Shown piece by piece: positions 173 through 44,284 of a stretch of 64,000 nt of DNA. The notes under the pieces were generated by a model that saw only the letters and a list, made by a program, of their open reading frames with translations, made no database searches and was not told the DNA's origin. The stretch spans positions 32,001 to 96,000 of IMG/VR virus record IMGVR_UViG_3300015171_000001; one strand, 5' to 3'. Source of the DNA: a virus. How positions within the stretch are numbered: position 1 is the stretch's first letter; each line of letters begins with the position of its first letter. A program made the translations under genes and the position numbers.

Positions 173-201
173 TTGACAATTTTTAGTAAATAGAATATAG
201 T
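173..201 (+). promoter_or_regulatory. sigma70-type promoter for tRNA
   Basis: TTGACA (173-178), 17 nt spacer, TATAGT (196-201), upstream of tRNA at 237. Confidence 0.8.
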
Positions 202-214
202 TATTATTACGATA

Positions 215-232
215 GTTGATCTTTGATAGAAA
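215..232 (+). promoter_or_regulatory. boxA-like leader element, copy 1
   Basis: GTTGATCTTTGATAGAAA, repeated exactly at 393-410; lies between promoter and tRNA; resembles rRNA-leader boxA (GNTCTTTRA). Confidence 0.6.
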
Positions 233-236
233 ATAT

Positions 237-331
237 GGGTTCGTAGTGTAATTGGTAAGCACAAACAGATTTATATCCTGTGCGCCCCTGAATAGGGCTT
301 AGCCTCGGTTCAATTCCGAGCGAACCTACCA
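237..331 (+). tRNA. tRNA with UAU anticodon (Ile) and long variable arm
   Basis: Acceptor GGGTTCG/CGAACCT, A73, encoded CCA; D stem GTGT/GCAC with TGG loop; anticodon stem ACAG/CTGT plus an A.C pair, loop TTTATAT (TAT 272-274); V-arm GCCC/GGGC; T arm CTCGG-TTCAATT-CCGAG. Confidence 0.85.
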
Positions 332-349
332 TCCATAGTGGAAAAGATT

Positions 350-378
350 TTGCTAGTTTGTTAAAATTGATATATAAT
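350..378 (+). promoter_or_regulatory. sigma70-type promoter for second tRNA unit
   Basis: TTGCTA (350-355), 17 nt, TATAAT (373-378). Confidence 0.7.
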
Positions 379-392
379 TATCAATATGTTAG

Positions 393-410
393 GTTGATCT
401 TTGATAGAAA
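393..410 (+). promoter_or_regulatory. boxA-like leader element, copy 2
   Basis: Exact 18 bp repeat of 215-232 in the same promoter-element-tRNA context. Confidence 0.6.
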
Positions 411-416
411 TTACAT

Positions 417-496
417 CGCGGGAAAGACAAAAAGTTGAGTCGCTTCGCTCATAACGAAGAAATAGGGTCTTGGTGCAATTCCCCCTCCCGCAATCA
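417..496 (+). tRNA. tRNA-Met(CAT), initiator-like but degenerate
   Basis: CGCGGGA/TCCCGCA with C1:A72 mismatch; anticodon arm CTTCG-CTCATAA-CGAAG (CAT 450-452); T stem GGG[TCTT]GG/CCCCC has a 4 nt insertion; ends TCA rather than CCA. Confidence 0.7.
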
Positions 497-591: not shown

Positions 592-664
592 GCGATTGGT
601 AGTTTAATTAGAATATCTATCTACCAGATAGAAGAATGTGGCTCTAATCCACACCAACGCTCCA
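592..664 (+). tRNA. tRNA-Gly(ACC), atypical
   Basis: Acceptor GCG(A)TTGG/CCAACGC, U73, CCA; anticodon arm TCTAT-CTACCAG-ATAGA (ACC 623-625); T stem TGTGG/CCACA with non-canonical loop CTCTAAT; short D loop without GG. Confidence 0.7.
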
Positions 665-28368: not shown

Positions 28369-31200
28369 ATGCCTACTGATTTAAGAACTATAACTGCCGA
28401 TATTGTTGATACCGGAACAAATTCCAATTATTTTATTGTTGGAGAATTATCTAACACACTTACTTCTGGAAAAAATGCACTGACATTAAACGGATCTAAT
28501 TTATTATTACCTACTAGTAATATTTATTTTCAGGTATATGATTCCTCTGGAAATTTGTTATATACAGAAATCGCCAGGGGGAGTTCGAATATAAATTATA
28601 GGGAAGGGGTATCTATAATTATTTCTATTTGGGTAGATGATTCTACTGCAATTGGTACTGGAAAATTAATAATTGTTGGGCAAGACACAAATTCTAAAAT
28701 AGTAAAATGGACAAAAAATGTAAATATTAATCCATACCAAATAAATTCCTCAAAAATAAGATTTTATAATACTCCATCGATAGAAGTTGACCCATATCTA
28801 TCAGAAATTATAGTTTTTGATTCATTTTCAGACAATTTTAATTCTGGAACATCTAATACAAAGGCAATTGTTCCAAAACAAAATTTTCCATATTTTTCCT
28901 TCGATTACTTAAGAAACACAATAGATTATAGAGTGTATAATACATCAGGAAATCCATTCGATTCCTTCATGGAAGGTAATGTGATGAATTTCACAAATAT
29001 TAATGGAACTACAGCATCATTCTCTTCTAATGTATTGGAAGTCATTTCTGACTCGGAATTGAAAATAGAATTTCCATATCTAGAAAATAATATAGTAAAA
29101 AGTATAAGTTCATCAAATTGGAATATTTCTTATATACCATACGAAGAATTAAATTCACCACAATTTGTGGAAAAAGAATTGTCGGGGTCTATATTCACAT
29201 ATAAACAATCAGTAGCATATGTGTATTTCAAAAATATAAATACATTCACCGGAAATGTATATAGATTTAAATTATATAGAAAAGGATTAAATTCTAATTT
29301 TGATAGTGAATGTATAGCAGATGACTTAATTACTACAAAAGAAATATTAATAGATGATACTACACCAAATAGATCTTTAGAAAATATCGGGTATTTTTAT
29401 GAAACAGACCATATACAAAAATATTGGTTTACTAGTAGTAATGTATCATATTCATATACTACATTCCCTCTTATTGATAGCATGTTTATTGAAAATTCAT
29501 ACACAGGATCATCTAATATTTTTTCAAGACCATATATTTTATCAAAAGATGATACCACAACAGATTTCAGAAACTCTACATATATTCCTTATGATGCAAC
29601 GCAATCTTCTGCTTTATCTGGAAGTGCATATGATAGTAATTTTTTGAGAATATTTAATGGTGTCGAGTATGTCTTAACAGCAAATATTATTGCAACAAAT
29701 TCGGGAAGTTTTTCTACAGATAATGGAATTTTAGATTTTTATCTAACTGGATCTTTATTAAATAATTCCGTATCTAATCAATATGATGGTTATGGTGTAA
29801 AATTAATGTCAGTAATAGTCCCGAGTGGAACAGGAACAAAATACTTATATCAAGTAAGTAGTTCATTTACATTAAATGAAGATGTAAATTGTGCGCTGGT
29901 TTTATCTCCATATAATGCAAGCTTTTATGTTTCTAAAATATCAATACAACCAAAAGAAAGTTTTTCTTTTTCTCCTCAAATATTTTATATAAAAGTTCCA
30001 TTTCCTATAGATACAAGAAATTCTAGATATGTAATTTCTGCTGAATTGTTTGATGTGAATAGTGACCACGTTCCTATAACATTAGAAACTACTCAAAATT
30101 TTGACCCTCTTGGGGAATCATTATTTATGCCATCGGCAAGTATATCAGAATCTCCTAATTATGTAGTAAATGCAACAAATGCTAGTTTTCAAAGTTTAAC
30201 AGTATATCCAGGATTAACAAATTTATCTAATTTAATTGTTCAAAATATTACTGCAAATGGACAAGTCACATTTAATAATCAAGTCTATATTCCAGGAGGA
30301 AATGCATTATTTACATCAAGTTGGGCCAATAATTCTATAAATTCAATTTCTTCATCATATAGTAGTGTTTCATCTTACACATTAAATTCAATTTCTTCAT
30401 CATATGCATCAAGTTCTACTTTTTCAAATACCGCATCATTTTTATTAGGAACAATTGCATCTGCATCATATGCCACAACGTCTTCTTATTCTAATAATAC
30501 AATTTCATCATCATTTGCATCTAATTCAAATTTTTCAAATACAGCATCTTATGCTTTAAATTCTGGCATTAGCATAATTGCTAGGTCATTCACTTCATCT
30601 GTTACTTATATACCAACTACAGGGACGCGTTATGCTATTATAGAGGGCGTTGGTGGTGGTGGTGGGTCAGCAGGATCTCCTTCTACAAATTCAACAACAA
30701 TAGTAGTCGGTGGTGGTGCTGGAGGAGGTGCTTATTTTAGAAAAGTAGCAACCTCTGCAGAATTAATTTCTGGAGCAGTTATAGTTATTGGAAATGCTGG
30801 ATCGCCAGGTTCTAGTGGAGGCGGTGTGGGTGGTAATGGAGGAAATACAGTTATTACATACAGTTCTGTCACTCTTACAGCGGGAGGTGGGCAAGGTGGT
30901 AGTTATAACAGCATTTCGGTAAACTGGGCTGCAATAGCAGGAAGTCAAGGAGGAGTTGCTACTGGCGGAGATGATAATTTTTCTGGAGGAGTTGGTGGAA
31001 CTGGTGCTGGATATGGAAATCAAGATTCTGGATACGGTGGAAATGGAGGAAGTAGTTTCTTTAGTGGTGGTTCTACAAGCGCAGAACCTGGAAATGGGTA
31101 TGGATCTGGTGCTGGTGGATTATTTATTGGGGTTAGTGGTGCAGCCACTCCTGGACTTATTGGGGGCATTGGTTATGTACGAATTACCGAATTCTTATAA
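28369..31200 (+). CDS. tail-associated/fibre protein with (A/S)SY(A/S) repeats and Gly-rich C-terminal domain
   Basis: Ser/Ala 6-residue repeats at about 30310-30560; GGGGG-rich domain at about 30600-31200. Confidence 0.7.
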   Translation: MPTDLRTITADIVDTGTNSNYFIVGELSNTLTSGKNALTLNGSNLLLPTSNIYFQVYDSSGNLLYTEIARGSSNINYREGVSIIISIWVDDSTAIGTGKLIIVGQDTNSKIVKWTKNVNINPYQINSSKIRFYNTPSIEVDPYLSEIIVFDSFSDNFNSGTSNTKAIVPKQNFPYFSFDYLRNTIDYRVYNTSGNPFDSFMEGNVMNFTNINGTTASFSSNVLEVISDSELKIEFPYLENNIVKSISSSNWNISYIPYEELNSPQFVEKELSGSIFTYKQSVAYVYFKNINTFTGNVYRFKLYRKGLNSNFDSECIADDLITTKEILIDDTTPNRSLENIGYFYETDHIQKYWFTSSNVSYSYTTFPLIDSMFIENSYTGSSNIFSRPYILSKDDTTTDFRNSTYIPYDATQSSALSGSAYDSNFLRIFNGVEYVLTANIIATNSGSFSTDNGILDFYLTGSLLNNSVSNQYDGYGVKLMSVIVPSGTGTKYLYQVSSSFTLNEDVNCALVLSPYNASFYVSKISIQPKESFSFSPQIFYIKVPFPIDTRNSRYVISAELFDVNSDHVPITLETTQNFDPLGESLFMPSASISESPNYVVNATNASFQSLTVYPGLTNLSNLIVQNITANGQVTFNNQVYIPGGNALFTSSWANNSINSISSSYSSVSSYTLNSISSSYASSSTFSNTASFLLGTIASASYATTSSYSNNTISSSFASNSNFSNTASYALNSGISIIARSFTSSVTYIPTTGTRYAIIEGVGGGGGSAGSPSTNSTTIVVGGGAGGGAYFRKVATSAELISGAVIVIGNAGSPGSSGGGVGGNGGNTVITYSSVTLTAGGGQGGSYNSISVNWAAIAGSQGGVATGGDDNFSGGVGGTGAGYGNQDSGYGGNGGSSFFSGGSTSAEPGNGYGSGAGGLFIGVSGAATPGLIGGIGYVRITEFL

Positions 31201-31247
31201 TAAAAAGTGGAATGTAATATATCAATAGTTAATTATATTTATAATAT

Positions 31248-31847
31248 ATGAAAATCAAAATTTCAGAATTAAAATCAATAATACGTGAATGTATTAATGA
31301 GGAAAAACAAGTTTTATACGAAGCAATGACATATGATCAATTAGTACATGCGACTAAATCCAATTGGCCTACTAGATTTGAAAATACAAAAAATGTAATA
31401 ACAGTTCCTCCAAAATTAGTTGTTTTAAAAAGTGGAAATGTTGATTTGCAATTCAATTATAGATCAACAACATCAAAAAGTGGAAATTCTCACTTGGGGC
31501 AAATTATTTTCTTTCCAAATAAAATGAGTGCAATAAATAAATTTGGTAATTGGTGGAAGAAAATAAAAGATCAATTTAATAGATTTATTGGAAAGTCTGT
31601 TCCTCCAAATGTATTAAATAATGATGATTTGAGAAAAATGAATTGTAAATGCACTTGTGATTGCGAAGATTTTTTATATAGAATGGAAGTTGCCAATCAT
31701 AAGAAAGATGCTTCTGATATTAAATATAGCAATGGAAAAGATCCTATAATAAGAAACCCCCAAATGAGACCAGGATTATGTAAACATCTATTGGGAACTT
31801 TAAAATATCTTATAAACAAAAAACCATTAGAATCTGAAATAGATTAA
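31248..31847 (+). CDS. SWIM zinc-finger protein with LKxIIxEC N-terminal motif
   Basis: CTCDCEDF..GLCKHL. Confidence 0.75.
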   Translation: MKIKISELKSIIRECINEEKQVLYEAMTYDQLVHATKSNWPTRFENTKNVITVPPKLVVLKSGNVDLQFNYRSTTSKSGNSHLGQIIFFPNKMSAINKFGNWWKKIKDQFNRFIGKSVPPNVLNNDDLRKMNCKCTCDCEDFLYRMEVANHKKDASDIKYSNGKDPIIRNPQMRPGLCKHLLGTLKYLINKKPLESEID

Positions 31848-33105: not shown

Positions 33106-36100
33106 ATGAGTTCACATGAACAAGCAATTAAAAATAAAATTAAGGAAGAGTATAGACTGTGTGCTCAAGATCCAATTTATTTCATAAAAAAATACGTTAA
33201 AATAGAACATCCTGGAAAAGGTGTTATCCCATTTGAACTTTTCCCATTTCAAGAAGATGTCCTAAATCAATTTAGAGGTCATAATAAAAATATCGTCTTA
33301 AAAGCAAGACAAATGGGTATATCCACAGTTACTGCCGCTTATTGTTTGTGGTTGATGGTTTTCTTTGATAATAAAAAAATTGTTTGTTTGGCTACAAAAC
33401 AAGATACCGCTAAAGAAATTGTTACCCGTTGTAAATTTGGTTATGAACATTTGCCAAGTTGGTTGAGACCACTTGCTATTGAAAATAATAAACTTTCATT
33501 GGAATTAAAAACTGGTGGGAGAATTGCTGCTGAAACTGCTGCTATTGACTCTGCCAGAGGTAAGGCTCTATCTTTATTAATATTAGATGAAGTTGCATCT
33601 ATGAAGGATGCTGATGAAATATGGACTGCTGCGCAGAGTGCAACGACCCATGGTGGAGGCAGAGCAATATTAATTTCTTGTGTTACCAAAGATACATATG
33701 TTTTTACAAACCAAGGAATAAAACAAGTTAATGATTTTATAAAACACAAAAATATTGGAGGATATAATATTGAAAATTATTCAATATTGGGAAAATCTAA
33801 ACAAAGGACCGGAAATTTGTTCAAAAATAATGGAATTTGCGATACTATAAAAATAAAAACAAAATTTTCTGAGTTAGAAGGAAGTTCTGAGCATAAATTA
33901 TGGGCTTATAAAAAATCGGAACTTAAATTTGGGTGGTATAAATTAAAAGATTTGTCTTTAGAGGATTTTGTTTCAATACAATATGGAATGAACATTTGGG
34001 GGGGGAATGATTTATTAGATTATAAAACAACAAACAGAATTTATAATAAAAATAATTATCATTTCGACAAAATTACTCCCGCTTTAGCATATTTTTTTGG
34101 ATTATATATCTCAGAAGGATATATTAGTAAATCTTGCAATAAGGAAGGAAAATCAACAAGTGCTCGTATACACATATCTTGTGGAGATCCAGAAATTAAA
34201 TGGTGTTTTGAAAAATTAAATATAAAATACCACGTTAGAAATAATTTACAATATACTATAAACTCGAAAAATTTATTAGAATTATTTGAATATGTAGGAT
34301 TTGATATATCAAGAAGAGCGCAAAATAAAATAATTCCCAAAAGATTATTAGAAATGAGCAGAGAAAATATGATATATTTGTTACGAGGGATTTTTGATGG
34401 TGATGGAACTGCTTCAAAAGGTAATGTGTCGATTACATCAACATCTTCTATATTAATTGATCAATTACGAATAATTTTAAATAATTTTGGAATATTATCC
34501 TCCAGATATGTCCAAGACATAACTAAAAAAAATTTAGTTAATAAAAAAAATATTAATCCAAGTAATTTGCACATTAAAGGAAATTATGATAGTCATATAT
34601 TAGAAATTTATGGAAAAAATGCTTTGCAATATTTTAATGAAATTGGTTTTTGTCTAACAAGAAAACAGAATAAAAAAGAATTATTATTAGCACATAATTT
34701 AAATAGATCTTCTACTTCCGACATTATTCCAAATTCTGTTAAACTTGTTAAAGAATTAGTGAGAGTTTCTAATAAAACTACCACTTTTATTTATAAAAAT
34801 AACGATATATTTTTAAATTGTATATGCAACAATATAACAAAATATAAAACAAACAATGTATCAAGAGAACTTGTTTTGAAATTATACGACTTATTTGGAA
34901 AAAATTTATCTATAGAAAATAAAATCGAATATGATAAAATATTGTCCAGTAATTTGTGTTGGGTTAAAATAGATAAAATATTATATGATAGAAAAGAAAC
35001 ATATGATTTTTCTTTGCCGGAAAATGATGACGATTTTTGGTGTCACTCAATAATATATAATGGATTTTTAGGACATCAAACTCCAAAAGGTATAGGCAAT
35101 TTTTATCACAAAATGTGGGTAGACGCAGAAAATGGGGAAAATGGTTTTAATGCAATTAGATTACATTGGAGATTGCATCCAGAATATGATCAGACTTGGA
35201 GAGATGAACAAACAAAAACTCTTGGAGAAAAGGCGGCAAATCAGGAGTGCGAAGGAATATTTTTAGGAACTGGACATACTGTTATAGATGAACAATTTTT
35301 AAAACATTATAGAGAAAATGTAGTAAAAGAACCTATTTCCAAAACACAAGTTGGAGAATCTTTATGGACTTGGAAATATGCAAATTATAGTAAACAATAT
35401 TTAGTATCTGCTGACGTGGCAAGAGGAGATGGAAACGATTTTTCGGCAGCACAAATAATAGATTTAGATAATTTGGAACAAGTTGCTGAATTTAAAGGAA
35501 AAATGCCACCAAAAGAATTTGGAGCATTTTGTATAGGATTGGCAAGTCAATATAATAATGCGGTATTGGTAATAGAAAATAATAGCTTCGGCCATACAAC
35601 AATACAAGAATGCATAGACAGAGAATATCCTAATTTATTTTATTCAACAAATGATTTGCAATTTGTGGATGTTGAAAGAAATATATCAAATAAATTAAAT
35701 AGAGATGATAAAAGATTAATTCCAGGACATACTACAACATCTAAAAATAGAGTTCCAATGATTTCTAAATTGGAAATGGCAATGAGAGAAAAATCAATCA
35801 TAATAAATTCTCAGAGAACTATAGATGAATTGACTACTTTTATTTGGAATAATGGAAAACCAGAAGCTATGCGCTCTTATAATGACGACTTAATCATGTC
35901 ATTGTGTATAGCACTATGGATTAGAGACACAGCGATAAGACTTAAAGTAGAAAAAATTTCCCTTCAAAAAGAATTATTATTACATATGGGGAAAACTAAA
36001 CTTAATAACGAAAGACCTAGACAAGATAATTATAGTACCGCAGATAAAACTACTTCGGGAACACAAATATATAGTATCGGCGTTATGAATAAAAAAGAAA

Positions 36101-36159
36101 ATCCATATATCTATAAAATGGGAAATGGACATACAGAAGATTTTAAGTGGTTATTATAA
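33106..36159 (+). CDS. terL: terminase large subunit (gp17-like) with one intein
   Basis: KARQMGIST Walker A, LLILDEVA Walker B, IS|TPKG motif split by the intein, ADVARG, NDDLIMS. Confidence 0.95.
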   Translation: MSSHEQAIKNKIKEEYRLCAQDPIYFIKKYVKIEHPGKGVIPFELFPFQEDVLNQFRGHNKNIVLKARQMGISTVTAAYCLWLMVFFDNKKIVCLATKQDTAKEIVTRCKFGYEHLPSWLRPLAIENNKLSLELKTGGRIAAETAAIDSARGKALSLLILDEVASMKDADEIWTAAQSATTHGGGRAILISCVTKDTYVFTNQGIKQVNDFIKHKNIGGYNIENYSILGKSKQRTGNLFKNNGICDTIKIKTKFSELEGSSEHKLWAYKKSELKFGWYKLKDLSLEDFVSIQYGMNIWGGNDLLDYKTTNRIYNKNNYHFDKITPALAYFFGLYISEGYISKSCNKEGKSTSARIHISCGDPEIKWCFEKLNIKYHVRNNLQYTINSKNLLELFEYVGFDISRRAQNKIIPKRLLEMSRENMIYLLRGIFDGDGTASKGNVSITSTSSILIDQLRIILNNFGILSSRYVQDITKKNLVNKKNINPSNLHIKGNYDSHILEIYGKNALQYFNEIGFCLTRKQNKKELLLAHNLNRSSTSDIIPNSVKLVKELVRVSNKTTTFIYKNNDIFLNCICNNITKYKTNNVSRELVLKLYDLFGKNLSIENKIEYDKILSSNLCWVKIDKILYDRKETYDFSLPENDDDFWCHSIIYNGFLGHQTPKGIGNFYHKMWVDAENGENGFNAIRLHWRLHPEYDQTWRDEQTKTLGEKAANQECEGIFLGTGHTVIDEQFLKHYRENVVKEPISKTQVGESLWTWKYANYSKQYLVSADVARGDGNDFSAAQIIDLDNLEQVAEFKGKMPPKEFGAFCIGLASQYNNAVLVIENNSFGHTTIQECIDREYPNLFYSTNDLQFVDVERNISNKLNRDDKRLIPGHTTTSKNRVPMISKLEMAMREKSIIINSQRTIDELTTFIWNNGKPEAMRSYNDDLIMSLCIALWIRDTAIRLKVEKISLQKELLLHMGKTKLNNERPRQDNYSTADKTTSGTQIYSIGVMNKKENPYIYKMGNGHTEDFKWLL
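33679..35079 (+). mobile_element. intein (467 aa, LAGLIDADG) in terminase
   Basis: Starts CVTKDT, contains GLYISEG and LRGIFDGDG, ends GHQ|T. Confidence 0.92.
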
Positions 36160-36587: not shown

Positions 36588-39500
36588 ATGGCAGAAAAAT
36601 CAATATTCGCAGCACTTAAAAAAATATTCTCAAATGATGTCATCGTTCGTAATGTCGGTGGTAAAAAATTAAAAATAGTAGATCCTTCTAATGTTCAATA
36701 TGCTCCAGATGCTAATTCATTAAAAGATCGTTTTAATAGATTAAGATCTTCTAATTACGGAATATATTCTAGAGATATGATCATGTCATATCAATCAGCT
36801 AGAATTGAACTTTTTCGTGATTATGATTGTGTTTCTGGAGATACAATTATTCCTCTTCCTGATGGAACTAAACCAACTATAAAGGAACTGGCGGAGAAAT
36901 ATAAATATTTGCCACAAGAAAAATTTTATGTGTATTCATATGATCACGAAACAGATTCTATTAAATTAGGAAATGCTTTTCATCCCAGATCTAAAGGAAT
37001 TAAGCCAACATTCAAAGTAATATTAGATAATGATGAACATATTATTGGAACAGAAGATCATTTATTTCTTTGTAAAAATGGAGAATATAAAAAATTAAAA
37101 GAGTTAACAACAGGAGAATCTTTAATGCCATTTTATCAAAAAGATTTTTATGATAAAGGATATAGACATTTATACAATTTTTCTAAAGGATGGCAACCAG
37201 AACATAATGTTGTAGCAGAACAATTTTATAATAGACCCGTTTCAGAAAATGAAGTTGTACATCACAAAAATTTTAAACCATTTTGTAATTTTCCAGAAAA
37301 TTTGCAAATAATGGATAAAAAAGCTCATAGACAATTTCACATGGATCTAAATAATAAAAAAATATGGAGCCCAGAAAATTATGAAAAGCAATGCGAAATT
37401 ATAAGAGAAGCTGTTAAAAAAAGACCCATTTATTCTTGGAATGGAAAAAGAAAAGGAGAAAATAATCCCTTTTTTGGCAAAAAACATTCCGAAAATAGTA
37501 ATTTGATTAGATCTAAAAAATTAAAAGAATTTTCAAAAACCAGAAATTATACTTCAGAAAAAAATCCAAATTTTAATTCTAATATAACATTTGATTTAAT
37601 AAAAAACTTTTGTATTGATTTTTATAAAAATAACGGGGAATTTATAACAAGAAAAGAAATTAGAAAAGAATTGTCTTGCGATGAATCTATCATAACAAAT
37701 AGATTGAAAAATAACAATTATGATTGGAACAAATTTAAAAAAGAAATAATTTATACATTAAATCACAAAGTAAAATCAATTGAATATTATGGAGAAATTG
37801 AAGTATTTGATATTTCTGTTGAAAAGTATAACAACTTCGCTACCAACAACTTATTCTTACATAATTGTATGGACCTCGATCCAATCTTGGCGGCGGCACT
37901 AGATATATTTTCGGACGAAAGTCTAACAGAAAATGAATTTGGAAAAATTCTTTCTATTAAATCAGATGATGAGAATATTAAAGATATTCTTCATAATTTA
38001 TTTTATGATATTTTAAATATTGAATTTAATTTGTGGAGTTGGGTTAGAAATATGGTTAAGATGGGAGATTTTTTCTTAAAACTTGATATATCGAGTGAAT
38101 ATGGTGTCTTCATGGTTCACCCATTAAGTTCATATGAAGTTAGCCGAATAGAAACTATTGATGATAACGGAAATATCGTTTATAAGTTTAGACATGATGG
38201 TTCTAGAGGTCAGGGTGAGTTGGAAAATTATGAAGTGGCACATTTTAGATTACTTTCTGACACAAATTTTTTGCCTTATGGACGATCTATGTTAGAGGGC
38301 GCAAGAAGAACATGGAAACAACTTTGTTTACATTCTAATTCAAACATATGGACATCCAATGGATATAAAAAGATAAAAGACATAGAAATTGGAGATATTG
38401 TTTATTCATATGATTATAAAACATGCAAAACAATTCCAACTAAAGTCAAAAATTGTTTAAAAACAGGAAACAAAAAAACATACAAATTAAAAACAAGAAC
38501 TAGAGAATTAATATTAACAGGAGAACATCCGGTTTTAGTTAAGGATGTAGAAAATAATTATTCTTATAAAAAAGCAAAAGAATTAACAAAAAAAGACTAT
38601 ATTATTATTCCTACTATTGAAGATAATTTTGAGGAAAATAAAAAAATATTAATAAATAATACAAATTATTGTGTTAAATTAAATGATTTGGGAATAAATT
38701 ATGTTAAAAATACTATAAATTCCGTAGGAATTATTAAAAGAATTAAAGATTTAAATGTAAACCACAACTTTAAACAAATCCATGCATTTTTACAAGGAGA
38801 TAAAACATTACCTATAATTATTTTTAATAAAATAAAAGAAGAATTTAAAATAAATTATTCTCATATAAATTATCATATTGTTGGAAGTAAAAGAAATAGT
38901 ATATTAAATAAAGATTTTAATTTCGTCTTAACTAAAGAATTTGTTAGATTTTTTGGATTTATGTTAGGAGATGGTTGGACAAAAAATAATAATGTTTCAT
39001 TTGCAAGAGGAATTTATGATAATAAAAATGATTTTTATACAAATATATTAAAAAACTATTGTGAATCGGTCACAGTAAAAATCGGAACAAAGACAAGACC
39101 AAATTATCCAGGAAGTGTTAATGGATATTCAAAAGAATTATCTCATATATTTAATGAACTAGGATTCAAAACTGGATTTCAAAATAAAGAAATTCCTAAT
39201 TGGGTTTGGAATTTAAGCAAAGAACACAAAAAAGAATTTATAAAAGGGTTATTTGATGCCGATGGTTCTTGGAAGTGGGGTATTATTGGATTATCAAATG
39301 AAAAATTAATAACTCAATATAAAATATTATGTCAACAAACAGGCATAATGTGTAATGAAGTTAAATTGTGTGGCAATCGATCCGAACCAAAAACAGACAA
39401 ATTTGGGGTGACTAGGCAACCAACTTATAAATTATATGTTAATTTTAATAATGAATTTAATTTAGATTTTCAAAAAGTTTGTAGTGTGGATGAGTTTGAA

Positions 39501-40808
39501 GAAAATTCGGAAGTGTGGGATTTGGAAGTGGATAATGAATTACATAATTTCATAGCAAATGGAATTGTTGTACATAATTGTTTATTAGAAGATGCTATGT
39601 TAATTCATAGAATCATGAGAGCACCTGAAAAAAGAATTTTCAAAATAGATATTGGCAATATTCCGGCTTCAGAAATTGATGGATTTATGGAAAAAATTGT
39701 TAATCAAATGAAAAAGGTTCCATATATGGACCCAAATACAGGTGATTATAATTTAAAATTCAATATTAATAACATGATCGAGGATTTCTTTTTGCCAGTT
39801 CGTGGTGGGGATAGTGGAACGTCTATTGACACACTTCCTGGTATGGAATTTACTGGAATTGAAGATGTAGAATATGTGAAAAATAAAATGATGGCTGCTC
39901 TTAAAATTCCAAAAACATTTTTGGGTTATGGAGAAGCTGTGGGTGGGAAGTCAACACTTGCTCAAGAAGATATTCGCTTTGCTAGAACAATTACCAGAAT
40001 TCAAAAAATAATTGTTTCTGAACTAACAAAAATCGCCATATTACATTTATATGTACAAGGATATAGGGACGCATCATTGGTTAATTTTGAATTATCATTA
40101 AGTAATCCGTCTACCATATTTGAGCAAGAAAAAATTGCTATTTGGTCTGATAAGATTTCTTTAGCTAAAGACATGATGGAATCTCAACTTATTTCCAAGA
40201 ATTGGATTTACAAATACATATTTGAACTTTCTGATGATGTTATTGAAGAAATGAAAGAAGATATTGTTAAAGATTCCCAAGAAGTTTTTAGATATAAGAA
40301 AATAGCTGAAGATGGTGAAGATCCTGCAAAAGACTTTACAAAACTTGGAAAAGAAAATAATGATGATGGGGATACTTCGGGAGGTGCCTCTACTGAACCA
40401 CCAAGTGACTTAGGTGGAGGAGAAGGATCAAATCAAGGTGAAGAGCCACCAACTCCAAACGAACCTACCACATCTAATTCTACGCCTCCTCCGCCTCCCT
40501 CCAATCCAGCAGGAGGAACGGGTGCGCCATTACAAGAAGAAAAAGATCCTAGGAATGGATTTCGATTAAGCAAAGACACTACTAGAAAGAATCATTCTGG
40601 TTTGGGAGAAGATCCATTAGGAAAATTACAAAAAGTTAGAGATACTAAACTAAAAAAGGATCAATCTAAGAATAGATATAAGAATAAATCTCCATTAGCC
40701 CTTGAGACATTAACCAACAGAAAAGTACTTAAATATAATACTATCTTAAAAGAAAAGATGAAAAGATTATCATTATTAGATGAAAATAACATTTTATCTA
40801 ACGATTAA
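36588..40808 (+). CDS. gp20: portal protein (gp20-like) with two inteins
   Basis: LEDAMLIHRIMRAPEKRIFKIDIGN, EDFFLPVRGG..IDTLPG, EDIRFARTI; 642 aa after splicing. Confidence 0.95.
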   Translation: MAEKSIFAALKKIFSNDVIVRNVGGKKLKIVDPSNVQYAPDANSLKDRFNRLRSSNYGIYSRDMIMSYQSARIELFRDYDCVSGDTIIPLPDGTKPTIKELAEKYKYLPQEKFYVYSYDHETDSIKLGNAFHPRSKGIKPTFKVILDNDEHIIGTEDHLFLCKNGEYKKLKELTTGESLMPFYQKDFYDKGYRHLYNFSKGWQPEHNVVAEQFYNRPVSENEVVHHKNFKPFCNFPENLQIMDKKAHRQFHMDLNNKKIWSPENYEKQCEIIREAVKKRPIYSWNGKRKGENNPFFGKKHSENSNLIRSKKLKEFSKTRNYTSEKNPNFNSNITFDLIKNFCIDFYKNNGEFITRKEIRKELSCDESIITNRLKNNNYDWNKFKKEIIYTLNHKVKSIEYYGEIEVFDISVEKYNNFATNNLFLHNCMDLDPILAAALDIFSDESLTENEFGKILSIKSDDENIKDILHNLFYDILNIEFNLWSWVRNMVKMGDFFLKLDISSEYGVFMVHPLSSYEVSRIETIDDNGNIVYKFRHDGSRGQGELENYEVAHFRLLSDTNFLPYGRSMLEGARRTWKQLCLHSNSNIWTSNGYKKIKDIEIGDIVYSYDYKTCKTIPTKVKNCLKTGNKKTYKLKTRTRELILTGEHPVLVKDVENNYSYKKAKELTKKDYIIIPTIEDNFEENKKILINNTNYCVKLNDLGINYVKNTINSVGIIKRIKDLNVNHNFKQIHAFLQGDKTLPIIIFNKIKEEFKINYSHINYHIVGSKRNSILNKDFNFVLTKEFVRFFGFMLGDGWTKNNNVSFARGIYDNKNDFYTNILKNYCESVTVKIGTKTRPNYPGSVNGYSKELSHIFNELGFKTGFQNKEIPNWVWNLSKEHKKEFIKGLFDADGSWKWGIIGLSNEKLITQYKILCQQTGIMCNEVKLCGNRSEPKTDKFGVTRQPTYKLYVNFNNEFNLDFQKVCSVDEFEENSEVWDLEVDNELHNFIANGIVVHNCLLEDAMLIHRIMRAPEKRIFKIDIGNIPASEIDGFMEKIVNQMKKVPYMDPNTGDYNLKFNINNMIEDFFLPVRGGDSGTSIDTLPGMEFTGIEDVEYVKNKMMAALKIPKTFLGYGEAVGGKSTLAQEDIRFARTITRIQKIIVSELTKIAILHLYVQGYRDASLVNFELSLSNPSTIFEQEKIAIWSDKISLAKDMMESQLISKNWIYKYIFELSDDVIEEMKEDIVKDSQEVFRYKKIAEDGEDPAKDFTKLGKENNDDGDTSGGASTEPPSDLGGGEGSNQGEEPPTPNEPTTSNSTPPPPPSNPAGGTGAPLQEEKDPRNGFRLSKDTTRKNHSGLGEDPLGKLQKVRDTKLKKDQSKNRYKNKSPLALETLTNRKVLKYNTILKEKMKRLSLLDENNILSND
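36828..37865 (+). mobile_element. intein 1 in portal (346 aa, HNH + NUMOD3)
   Basis: CVSGDT..LHN|C; VVHHKNF..N.PENL..H..H; GENNPFFGKKHS. Confidence 0.9.
38325..39578 (+). mobile_element. intein 2 in portal (418 aa, LAGLIDADG)
   Basis: CLHSNS..VHN|C; GFMLGDG and FIKGLFDADG. Confidence 0.92.
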
Positions 40809-42604: not shown

Positions 42605-44284
42605 ATGTCTAAATCATTATTAATCGAAGTCAGAGATTCAAAATTTACTTCTAAAAAAGAAGGAGATAAATTCTTTGTAGAGGGTATTCTTACTCATAAA
42701 GATGAAAAAAGAAATCAAAATGGACGAATTTATCCCGAAGAAACTCTTTTCAGAGAAGTTGAAAAATACAAGAATAATGTTATTAAAGAGAATAGAGCTA
42801 TGGGTGAACTAGACCATCCGGATTGTGTCGCAAGTGGTTCATTAATAATGACTTATGAAGGATGGAAGCCTCTAGAAAATATCAAAAATGATGAAATTAT
42901 TGCTACATTAAATATTGAAACTAATAAAATTGAATATCAAAAAATCACAGAAAAAATAGATCAAGAATATAAAGGAACGATGTATCGTGTAAAAGGAAGA
43001 AATATTAATATTTTAGTTACTCCAAATCACAGATTTGTTGTTAGAGATAGAAAAGGAAAATTGGGGTTTGATTGTGCTGAGAATCTTTATAATAGATTGC
43101 AAAATAATGAATATCCCCATTTATCAATTCCATCAAATTCATTTGGGTGGGACAAAGAGTCTCCAGAAAAATTTTTATTAAAAAGAGCCGAGAATGTTAG
43201 AAATGATTTAAGAGACAAATATAGTGAAGATATAGAAATAGATTTTTCTGTATGGATGGGATTTATTGGAATTTATTTAGCAGAAGGATATTTTAAAGGA
43301 TGTAGAAGAAGACAAGAATCTGTTAAAAAATCTGGATATTCTATTACTATTTCTCAAAATGAGGGAATTAAAAAAGATAAAATTAGAGAATTATTAAATA
43401 AATTTCCCGAAGAATTAAAGTGGAAAGAAGTAAAATGTGGATTTACCATCACAGATGCTAGATTACACAATTATGTTTCCAAATTAGGATCTTGTTATGA
43501 CAAATATATTCCACAAGAATTAAAAGAACAATCCATACCTTTATTAGAAGAATTATTAGAATTTTATTTTATTGGAGATGGAAGAGCACCAATTTATAAA
43601 GGACGTTCTTCTAAGGATGTATTTTCAACTTCTAAAAAATTAATAGAAGATTTACACGAAATTCTAACAAAAACCGGATGTTCTGGAAGTATTGCTGTGG
43701 AATATCCAAAAAAAGATTATAAATTTGCTGGGAGAATTATAAAAGCAAAAAATAAATCTCCATTATGGTTGTTGACTTTTAAAACAACTGGAGCAATTCA
43801 TATAGATCCAAGATTTTTAAAAATTGAAAAGGTTGATTATGATGGAAGAGTTTATTGTGTTAAAGTTCCAAATCAAACTTTTTATGCAATGAATGAAGGA
43901 AAATGTTTTTGGAGCGGCAATTCATCTGTAATTAATTTAAAAAATGTATCTCATAATATTGTTAGTTGTTGGTGGGAAGGTGATAGTTTAATTGGAAAAT
44001 TAGAAATTTTAGGAACTCCTTGTGGAAATATTGCAAAGGCTTTATTTGAGGCAGGTATTCCTGTAGGAATTTCTTCCAGAGCACTTGGAAGTGTTAAGAC
44101 TATCGGAGAAAATACTGTGGAGGTACAAGATGATTTAGAGCTTCTAGCATTTGATTTGGTCAGCACTCCATCTGCCAATGGAGCATATTTACAACCTCTC
44201 CACGAAGCAAAAGGAAACATAATAATTTTAGATAACAACGACAGAATAAATGAAATTATCAGAGAAATTTTAACAACAATATAA
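42605..44284 (+). CDS. gp21: prohead protease (gp21-like) with one intein
   Basis: NQNGRIYP, GELDHPD|SSVINLKNVSH, GISSRALGS, FDLVSTPS; 193 aa after splicing. Confidence 0.95.
   Translation: MSKSLLIEVRDSKFTSKKEGDKFFVEGILTHKDEKRNQNGRIYPEETLFREVEKYKNNVIKENRAMGELDHPDCVASGSLIMTYEGWKPLENIKNDEIIATLNIETNKIEYQKITEKIDQEYKGTMYRVKGRNINILVTPNHRFVVRDRKGKLGFDCAENLYNRLQNNEYPHLSIPSNSFGWDKESPEKFLLKRAENVRNDLRDKYSEDIEIDFSVWMGFIGIYLAEGYFKGCRRRQESVKKSGYSITISQNEGIKKDKIRELLNKFPEELKWKEVKCGFTITDARLHNYVSKLGSCYDKYIPQELKEQSIPLLEELLEFYFIGDGRAPIYKGRSSKDVFSTSKKLIEDLHEILTKTGCSGSIAVEYPKKDYKFAGRIIKAKNKSPLWLLTFKTTGAIHIDPRFLKIEKVDYDGRVYCVKVPNQTFYAMNEGKCFWSGNSSVINLKNVSHNIVSCWWEGDSLIGKLEILGTPCGNIAKALFEAGIPVGISSRALGSVKTIGENTVEVQDDLELLAFDLVSTPSANGAYLQPLHEAKGNIIILDNNDRINEIIREILTTI
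42824..43921 (+). mobile_element. intein (366 aa, LAGLIDADG) in prohead protease
   Basis: CVASGS..TPNH..GIYLAEG..IGDG..WSGN|S. Confidence 0.92.

Follow-up and report, generated by a model that had tools for sequence, protein, structure and literature searches.

A phage tRNA(UAU) gene at positions 237-331 (plus strand) of the stretch analyzed here belongs to a widespread phage family of long-arm tRNAs that is best described, judging from the sequences of its members, as carrying two successive hairpins that resemble anticodon arms, with a normal variable loop after the second. We consider it likely that the tRNA is a supplementary tRNA of the phage, which would be expressed from a host-type promoter, charged by the host isoleucyl-tRNA synthetase (IleRS) and able to read AUA as isoleucine without TilS. 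Throughout, "the window" refers to the whole 64,000-nt stretch, which corresponds to bases 32001-96000 of a 157,280-bp IMG/VR virus record (GC 27.8%; CheckV completeness 67%).

A phage tRNA(UAU) gene and its relatives

With default settings, ARAGORN called a 95-nt tRNA-Ile(tat) with an encoded CCA at positions 237-331, the sole tRNA that it found in the window and in the entire 157,280-bp record. The Rfam model RF00005 matched the same positions over its full length with 46.1 bits (gathering score, 29; E = 1.2e-6 for the 64-kb window). Reading of the sequence gave a 7-bp acceptor stem with a G1.U72 pair (237-243 with 321-327) and a D arm with a 4-bp stem and a 9-nt loop containing GG (246-262), followed by two extra A residues between the D and anticodon stems (263-264), that is, two nucleotides instead of one. 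The anticodon arm (265-281) pairs 265-269 with 277-281 as ACAG(A)/(C)CUGU, forming four Watson-Crick pairs and an A31.C39 mismatch, and its 7-nt loop UUUAUAU (270-276) holds the anticodon UAU at 272-274, as expected of a tRNA that reads AUA. The extra arm (284-298) consists of the 4-bp stem GCCC (284-287)/GGGC (295-298) and the 7-nt loop CUGAAUA (288-294). It is separated from the T stem by the 5-nt linker UUAGC (299-303), which has the length of a normal variable loop. A canonical T arm with the loop UUCAAUU (304-320), the discriminator A73 (328) and the encoded CCA (329-331) complete the molecule.

The cloverleaf, encoded CCA, TAT anticodon, A73 and paired arm GCCC-CTGAATA-GGGC listed in the preliminary description were thus all recovered by ARAGORN, Rfam and sequence reading. 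All five helices are intact, and G18G19, a T loop of the form UUCRANY, U33, a purine at position 37, the discriminator and CCA are present in the sequence and the Rfam alignment; within the anticodon region, U33, A35, U36 and A37 are all in place. Thermodynamic folding returned a z-score of -1.67. A register with a 9-nt anticodon loop and an A27.G43 mismatch was also considered and rejected, since the marine-group homologues, in which no additional nucleotide follows position 26, settle the register in favor of the 7-nt loop and the mismatch at 31.39.

The first distant relative recovered by BLAST was the 92-nt "tRNA-Ile-TAT" of Stenotrophomonas phage DLP_6, which aligns with the window tRNA over its full length, and the acceptor, anticodon and extra-arm stems of the two have diverged by compensatory changes. 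Scanning viral contigs with a pattern that left the variable region free yielded at least 23 distinct ARAGORN-confirmed tRNA(UAU) genes of 89-94 nt, and the same long-arm form occurs in about 40 Vibrio phage records, where it is mostly annotated as tRNA-Ile. Vibrio phage Pontus carries its long-arm tRNA(UAU) directly after a 76-nt tRNA-Ile(GAU), and for Vibrio phage henriette 12B8 the long-arm tRNA(UAU) is the only tRNA. We gathered at least 61 distinct long-arm tRNA(UAU) genes from phage contigs and from the cultured phages DLP_6, Pontus and henriette; the family pattern scans held the T-arm sequence fixed, and the family counts given here are samples, not censuses. A73 is found in 59 of the 61 genes among the matches listed, and CCA is encoded in most. 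One of the two listed members lacking A73 lies at L456:2575-2669, on the 225-kb phage contig IMGVR_UViG_3300025389_000010, and has U73 together with the extra loop UAGAUGU.

Covariation across homologues supports the predicted structure. In an alignment of 39 sequences, 93.4% of the cells are paired, versus 60.7% in shuffles. Both sides have changed in 24 of the 26 pairs, the observed covariation was reached by 0 of 500 shuffles, and no slid register came near it. The three inner pairs of the extra stem occur as several compensatory pair types. With compensatory changes in every helix among homologues, the window element is a genuine phage tRNA, beyond chance. A sample open to both lengths contained at least 59 distinct short tRNA(UAU) genes versus at least 10 long ones, and long-arm tRNA(UAU) is therefore a recurrent minority among phage tRNA(UAU) genes. 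The ordinary short phage tRNA-Ile(UAU), which is common in phage tRNA clusters, has the same anticodon and presumably the same job but lacks the extra arm.

An extra arm resembling an anticodon arm

The preliminary description had labelled the extra arm a class II long variable arm, a label that does not withstand comparison with true class II tRNAs. Class II tRNAs (bacterial Leu, Ser and Tyr; Sec) are similar to the window tRNA in being about 90 nt long and in having a paired variable-region arm. However, in the Leu, Ser and Tyr tRNAs encoded by the same contigs, the loop measures 4 nt in the median, the linker 1-3 nt and the variable region 13-18 nt, versus a region of 22 nt in long-arm tRNA(UAU), which has four pairs in the D stem and a body that can be aligned with class I tRNA-Ile. 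The extra arm of each of the 49 members parsed first comprises 1-4 unpaired nucleotides, a stem of 3-5 bp, a 7-nt loop and 4-7 unpaired nucleotides before the T stem. The window arm, with 4 bp, a 7-nt loop and a 5-nt linker in a tRNA with a UAU anticodon, a class-I-like D arm and A73, follows this architecture and not that of the Leu, Ser and Tyr arms: it is a second hairpin resembling an anticodon arm, after which comes a normal variable loop. Nor does the window tRNA belong with the allo-tRNAs, which have 8/4 or 9/3 acceptor/T branches and long arms, count UAU among their predominant anticodons and in some cases are encoded by phages (PMC5389517); its branch is the canonical 7/5 (7-bp acceptor stem, 5-bp T stem), with A73. 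Conversely, phages with long-arm tRNAs also encode tRNAs of only 74-76 nt that have Leu anticodons (CAA, UAA) and no long variable arm (L002:1413-1486, L456:6209-6284 and L461:507-580).

The loop of the extra arm is YAGAUNN or CUGAUUA in 58 of the 61 members among the matches listed, a copy of the anticodon loop of tRNA-Ile(GAU). The form YAGAUAA agrees at 6 of 7 positions with the anticodon loops YUGAUAA and CCGAUAA of the tRNA-Ile(GAU) encoded on the same contigs, and an unguided MAFFT alignment superimposes the extra arm in Pontus and DLP_6 on the anticodon arm (GAU) of the neighboring tRNA-Ile. When only the loop CAGATAA and the T arm were fixed and the anticodon was left free, the scan returned at least 46 tRNA(UAU) among at least 48 tRNAs with very different bodies. 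Since 46 of the 48 listed tRNAs with this loop are tRNA(UAU), the extra loop and the anticodon are coupled. The first hairpin is equipped for decoding, with U33 and A37; in the second, A usually stands at the position of U33. G3 and A4 of the extra loop are invariant, positions 6 and 7 vary among A, U, C and G across the 61 listed members, and U5 is replaced by A solely in the window copy among the matches listed. Positions 2 and 5 had looked like a co-varying pair (A..U; U..A for the window copy; G..C for both L016 and L073; complementarity of 100% in the 39-sequence alignment), an idea that was dropped because L046 and L371 have U..U (CUGAUUA).

U at position 33 is near-universal in tRNAs. 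The ordinary tRNA-Ile(GAU) of both Pontus (L448:2403-2478) and DLP_6 (L002:155-226) has C33, with the loops CCGAUAA and CCGAUUA, respectively, and that of DLP_6 additionally has U at position 37.

The extra arm might serve as a surrogate identity element, showing the host IleRS its usual GAU loop so that a poorly accepted UAU tRNA is still charged. This proposal, which would refine rather than replace the explanation of the tRNA as a decoder of AUA as isoleucine, strikes us as rather unlikely. It is consistent with the coupling of the CAGATAA loop to UAU across very different bodies, with the 6-of-7 match to the co-resident tRNA-Ile(GAU) loops, with the alignment of the arm on the neighboring GAU arm in Pontus and DLP_6, with the retention of GAU in nearly all listed members and with the discrimination of E. 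coli IleRS against UAU (PMC3575796). However, most phage tRNA(UAU) genes in the sample open to both lengths are short, so the arm is not required for such tRNAs to persist. Loop positions 6 and 7, which would be the counterparts of the IleRS determinants A37 and A38, vary, and the conserved A at the position equivalent to U33 has no account in IleRS recognition. Moreover, a hairpin in the variable region of a normal L-shape would probably lie far from the anticodon contact of IleRS, and a conformational switch would be needed. Finally, the window copy, L016 and L073 lack GAU yet retain all other features; under this proposal, the GAA of the window copy would mark either a weakened variant or a host IleRS that takes UAU directly.

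The D-arm pattern delineates a subgroup of about 10 tRNAs from viral and metagenome contigs to which the window copy belongs, together with DLP_6, L337, L371, L046, L039, L089, L456, L457 and L461. Traits common to the window copy and this subgroup are the G1.U72 pair, a D arm of the form GUGUAAYUGG(N)AAGCAC, an additional nucleotide following position 26, a mismatch at 31.39, and the GCCC/GGGC stem with the UUAGC linker. The extra loops of the subgroup are CAGAUUA, CUGAUUA or UAGAUGU. That of the window, CUGAAUA, is one substitution away from CUGAUUA (L046 and L371) and two from CAGAUUA (L337 and L457), all on the same stem, and a single base change relative to L046 and L371 has turned GAU into GAA. 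Only 3 of the 61 members among the matches listed have no GAU in the extra loop, namely the window copy, L016 and L073 (UGGACU for the latter two), and all three keep every other family feature. A scan with the loop CUGAATA and the T arm found no tRNA(UAU) with the loop of the window among the matches listed, and a scan with the T-arm pattern of the window for close relatives returned, among the matches listed, two tRNA-Gln genes only. On sequence grounds, the window copy is a divergent member of the family with a whole scaffold and a lost GAU.

The 31.39 mismatch (A.C, C.A or A.A) is found in 7 of the 10 tRNAs of this subgroup. Across the family, 31 of 61 long-arm tRNA(UAU) genes have it, mostly as A.C, but it is present in none of 64 short tRNA(UAU) among the matches listed and in 4% of 1,345 other tRNAs in the same loci; one of the scans contributing to this count forced A31, though not its partner. 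The mismatch is a real trait of the family.

ATA codons and the amino acid at AUA

As the preliminary description had claimed, the genome is rich in ATA. With 1,622 occurrences among 46,228 codons, ATA ranks tenth among the codons by frequency of use (35 per 1000) and accounts for 40% of Ile codons. The meaning of this codon was assessed by aligning the window proteins by tblastn to 80 loci containing gp23 homologues (53-65% identity) and neighboring genes. We then tabulated the homologue residues found at each window codon, leaving out ATA codons of the homologues. In conserved virion proteins, the fractions of I, L and V in the homologues were 0.32, 0.18 and 0.21 at ATA sites (n = 82), 0.37, 0.13 and 0.25 at ATT sites (n = 166), and 0.33, 0.16 and 0.20 at ATC sites (n = 40), compared to 0.07, 0.58 and 0.08 at TTA sites (n = 168). 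The Leu fraction at ATA sites was 0.41 below that at TTA sites (95% interval, -0.48 to -0.33). Where one residue dominated the column, it was I in 14, L in 6 and V in 4 of 28 columns at ATA sites, versus L in 77 of 86 columns at TTA sites (ATA vs TTA, P = 2e-11; ATA vs ATT+ATC, P = 0.35; Fisher's test). ATA is thus an isoleucine codon for this phage, a result that concerns the meaning of the codon and not the cargo of the tRNA. Genome-wide recoding of ATA to Leu was rejected, given that ATA sites profile like ATT and ATC sites and unlike TTA sites.

These profiles bear on a second suggestion of the preliminary description, namely that the tRNA accepts Leu and misreads AUA, in which case ATA codons might align with conserved Leu columns of homologues. 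More broadly, the window tRNA could be a class II tRNA that accepts Leu or Ser but has acquired a UAU anticodon, so that AUA would be mistranslated in the manner suggested for the nematode nev-tRNAs. A73 is also the key determinant for LeuRS, and the anticodon is not read by bacterial LeuRS. The D loop of the window tRNA, AAUUGGUAA, also resembles its counterpart in E. coli tRNA-Leu. Both the discriminator and the indifference of bacterial LeuRS to the anticodon (identity review, PMC9976931) would suit charging with Leu, and the nematode tRNA(UAU) with a V-arm is leucylated in vitro (PMC3333845, PMC4300185). Nevertheless, we judge mischarging with Leu or Ser to be highly improbable. Homologues show an Ile-like rather than a Leu-like profile at ATA sites, with none of the Leu-like footprint that a tRNA of the nev type would leave at AUA positions, and with 1,622 ATA codons, systematic insertion of Leu would strike 40% of Ile positions, making it very unlikely that such a tRNA would be kept as the only tRNA of the phage. 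The architecture argues in the same direction, since the extra arm differs from Leu, Ser and Tyr arms in its region (22 vs 13-18 nt), loop (7 vs 4 nt) and linker (4-6 vs 1-3 nt) and the 4-pair D stem and body are those of a class I tRNA-Ile; charging with Ser is further disfavored by the lack of G73. The nematode nev-tRNA-Ile(UAU) resembles the window tRNA in combining UAU with a long extra arm, but the nev-tRNAs are eukaryotic, derived from class II tRNA-Leu and leucylated in vitro (PMC3333845, PMC4300185), whereas here the arm copies an Ile anticodon arm and ATA acts as Ile.

Genomic surroundings and proposed function

A sigma-70-like promoter (TTGACA/17 nt/TATAGT, 173-201, plus strand) ends 36 nt upstream of the tRNA and matches the consensus at 11 of 12 positions; its function is predicted from this consensus match. 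It is followed by an 18-nt leader repeat, GTTGATCTTTGATAGAAA, whose first copy (215-232, plus strand) ends 4 nt before the 5' end of the tRNA. An exact second copy (393-410, plus strand) lies behind a second sigma-70-like promoter (TTGCTA/17 nt/TATAAT, 350-378, plus strand; 10 of 12 consensus matches) and before an element with a CAU loop. The chance expectation for the repeat is 0.38 matches, and two or more were found in 4 of 100 shuffles. The repeat is possibly a shared 5' leader or processing site.

The CAU-loop element (417-493, plus strand) is a weak tRNA-like sequence with the loop CUCAUAA, whose D arm is atypical and whose T stem has a bulge of 4 nt. It scored 30.1 bits with Rfam RF00005 in a permissive search (gathering score, 29) and was not called by ARAGORN even with a lowered threshold. 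It has its own promoter (350-378) and the same 18-nt leader as tRNA(UAU). A second weak tRNA-like element (592-664, plus strand), with an ACC anticodon, U73, an encoded CCA and a D loop without GG, scored 28.9 bits, just below the gathering score of 29, and was called Gly(acc) by ARAGORN only at -ps80. Neither element had any relative among the fetched phage loci.

The presence of these two degenerate elements downstream of tRNA(UAU) makes some decay of the window copy possible. Taken further, the element at 237-331 might itself be a tRNA-like RNA that is in decay or serves outside translation (for instance, a relic, a regulatory RNA or a decoy for a host defence that targets tRNAs), with no role in decoding. 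The loss of the family GAU, the 31.39 mismatch and the G1.U72 pair, the fold z-score of only -1.67 and the lack of a close relative with the same extra loop among the matches listed could be read in this way. On the other hand, none of the five helices is broken, GG, U33, A37, the T loop, A73 and CCA are canonical, and the mismatch and the G1.U72 pair are subgroup traits rather than private defects. The gene also has its own strong sigma-70-like promoter by consensus match, and the single tRNA retained by the phage reads a codon used at 35 per 1000. Weighing both sides, we find a non-decoding RNA improbable.

Among the genes of the window are those of a T4-like virion, namely gp23 capsid, gp20 portal, sheath, baseplate wedge and terminase, and several of these genes contain inteins. 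The genes for the terminase large subunit (33106-36159), gp20 portal (36588-40808) and prohead protease (42605-44284) each contain intein or homing-endonuclease domains (Intein_splicing, HNH, LAGLIDADG), which explains their unusual length. The closest cultured relatives of the capsid are from Flavobacterium and Microcystis phages (51-52% identity), both of which lack a long-arm tRNA(UAU), and megablast of the first 3 kb against cultured phages returned no match. The gene adjoining the tRNA has distant relatives only and gave no clue to the host. Just upstream of the window, on the minus strand of the record (30737-31553; L001:1-817), an IS607-like serine recombinase of 201 aa with a MerR-type N-terminus is encoded, whose best genome match is a Promethearchaeota MAG contig (61% identity); the start of a TnpB-like ORF lies beside it on the same strand, right before the tRNA region.

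A domain search of the phage record found neither a TilS-type domain nor a class Ia synthetase domain. With no aminoacyl-tRNA synthetase or TilS domain in the record, charging and modification must be provided by the host. We propose that the tRNA would be transcribed early in infection from its own host-type promoter and that host IleRS would charge it with isoleucine, thereby adding decoding capacity for AUA, a codon heavily used by this very AT-rich phage. The tRNA would have no need of host TilS to read AUA, because its anticodon is UAU and not CAU. Of the two readings offered in the preliminary description, it is this TilS-independent decoder of AUA that accords with the demand for ATA, the status of the gene as the sole confident tRNA, the sigma-70-like promoter and a record without TilS or class Ia synthetase domains; the part concerning charging with isoleucine is a prediction. 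Decoding of AUA as Ile is further favored by A35, U36, A37 and A73, all present in the window tRNA, and by the annotation of family members from cultured phages as tRNA-Ile, while the loss of GAU and the lack of a close relative with the same loop among the matches listed count against it.

TilS-independent tRNA-Ile2(UAU) is known from Mycoplasma mobile and, as a UAU suppressor, from tilS-deleted Bacillus subtilis (PMC3575796, PMC3919564). Like these tRNAs, in which UAU reads AUA without lysidine, the window tRNA has A73 and A37 after U36. They are, however, ordinary class I tRNAs with short variable loops, whereas the window tRNA is distinguished by its extra hairpin, the additional nucleotide that follows position 26 and the mismatch at 31.39. 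In addition, M. mobile has an adapted IleRS (Arg865) and ribosome, whereas a phage-borne tRNA must work with an unadapted host enzyme; a system of the M. mobile type would call for a host without tilS and an IleRS in which a basic residue takes the place of E. coli W905. The kcat/Km of E. coli IleRS is about 360-fold lower for UAU tRNA-Ile than for the lysidine form, and on E. coli ribosomes AUG is read as well by an unmodified UAU (PMC3575796). For these reasons, it is not assured that the window tRNA would work efficiently and accurately in the host. Given this weak acceptance by IleRS and the misreading of AUG, it is tempting to look for a feature that compensates, for which the arm bearing GAU is one candidate. 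One speculative and doubtful possibility, drawn from the sequence comparisons, is that the second arm acts as a portable address taken from the anticodon arm of tRNA-Ile(GAU), which would gain the UAU tRNA acceptance by the Ile machinery, be it IleRS or a modifying enzyme, of hosts that normally require lysidine, while the 31.39 mismatch would tune unmodified UAU against misreading of AUG.

GenBank phage records annotate the two-arm genes as plain tRNA-Ile, and their architecture has apparently gone unremarked. Our literature search found no paper describing a tRNA-Ile(UAU) with a second anticodon-like arm. The function of an AUA-reading tRNA-Ile is known, but the two-arm design and its coupling to UAU appear to be undescribed in the literature searched. 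To our knowledge, almost all bacteria read AUA only after TilS has modified a CAU anticodon, and their IleRS rejects plain UAU. Phages nevertheless carry many UAU tRNAs, a recurrent minority of which have a second hairpin that copies the other Ile anticodon loop. Within this minority, the window copy is an informative exception, having kept the whole scaffold and lost GAU; if the second arm is indeed a portable address, this copy would be a natural loss-of-address variant and a ready-made test case. Should the arm prove to be an identity or modification signal, it would represent a new route to tRNA identity outside the anticodon and acceptor stem and would offer synthetic biology a natural template for decoding AUA orthogonally.
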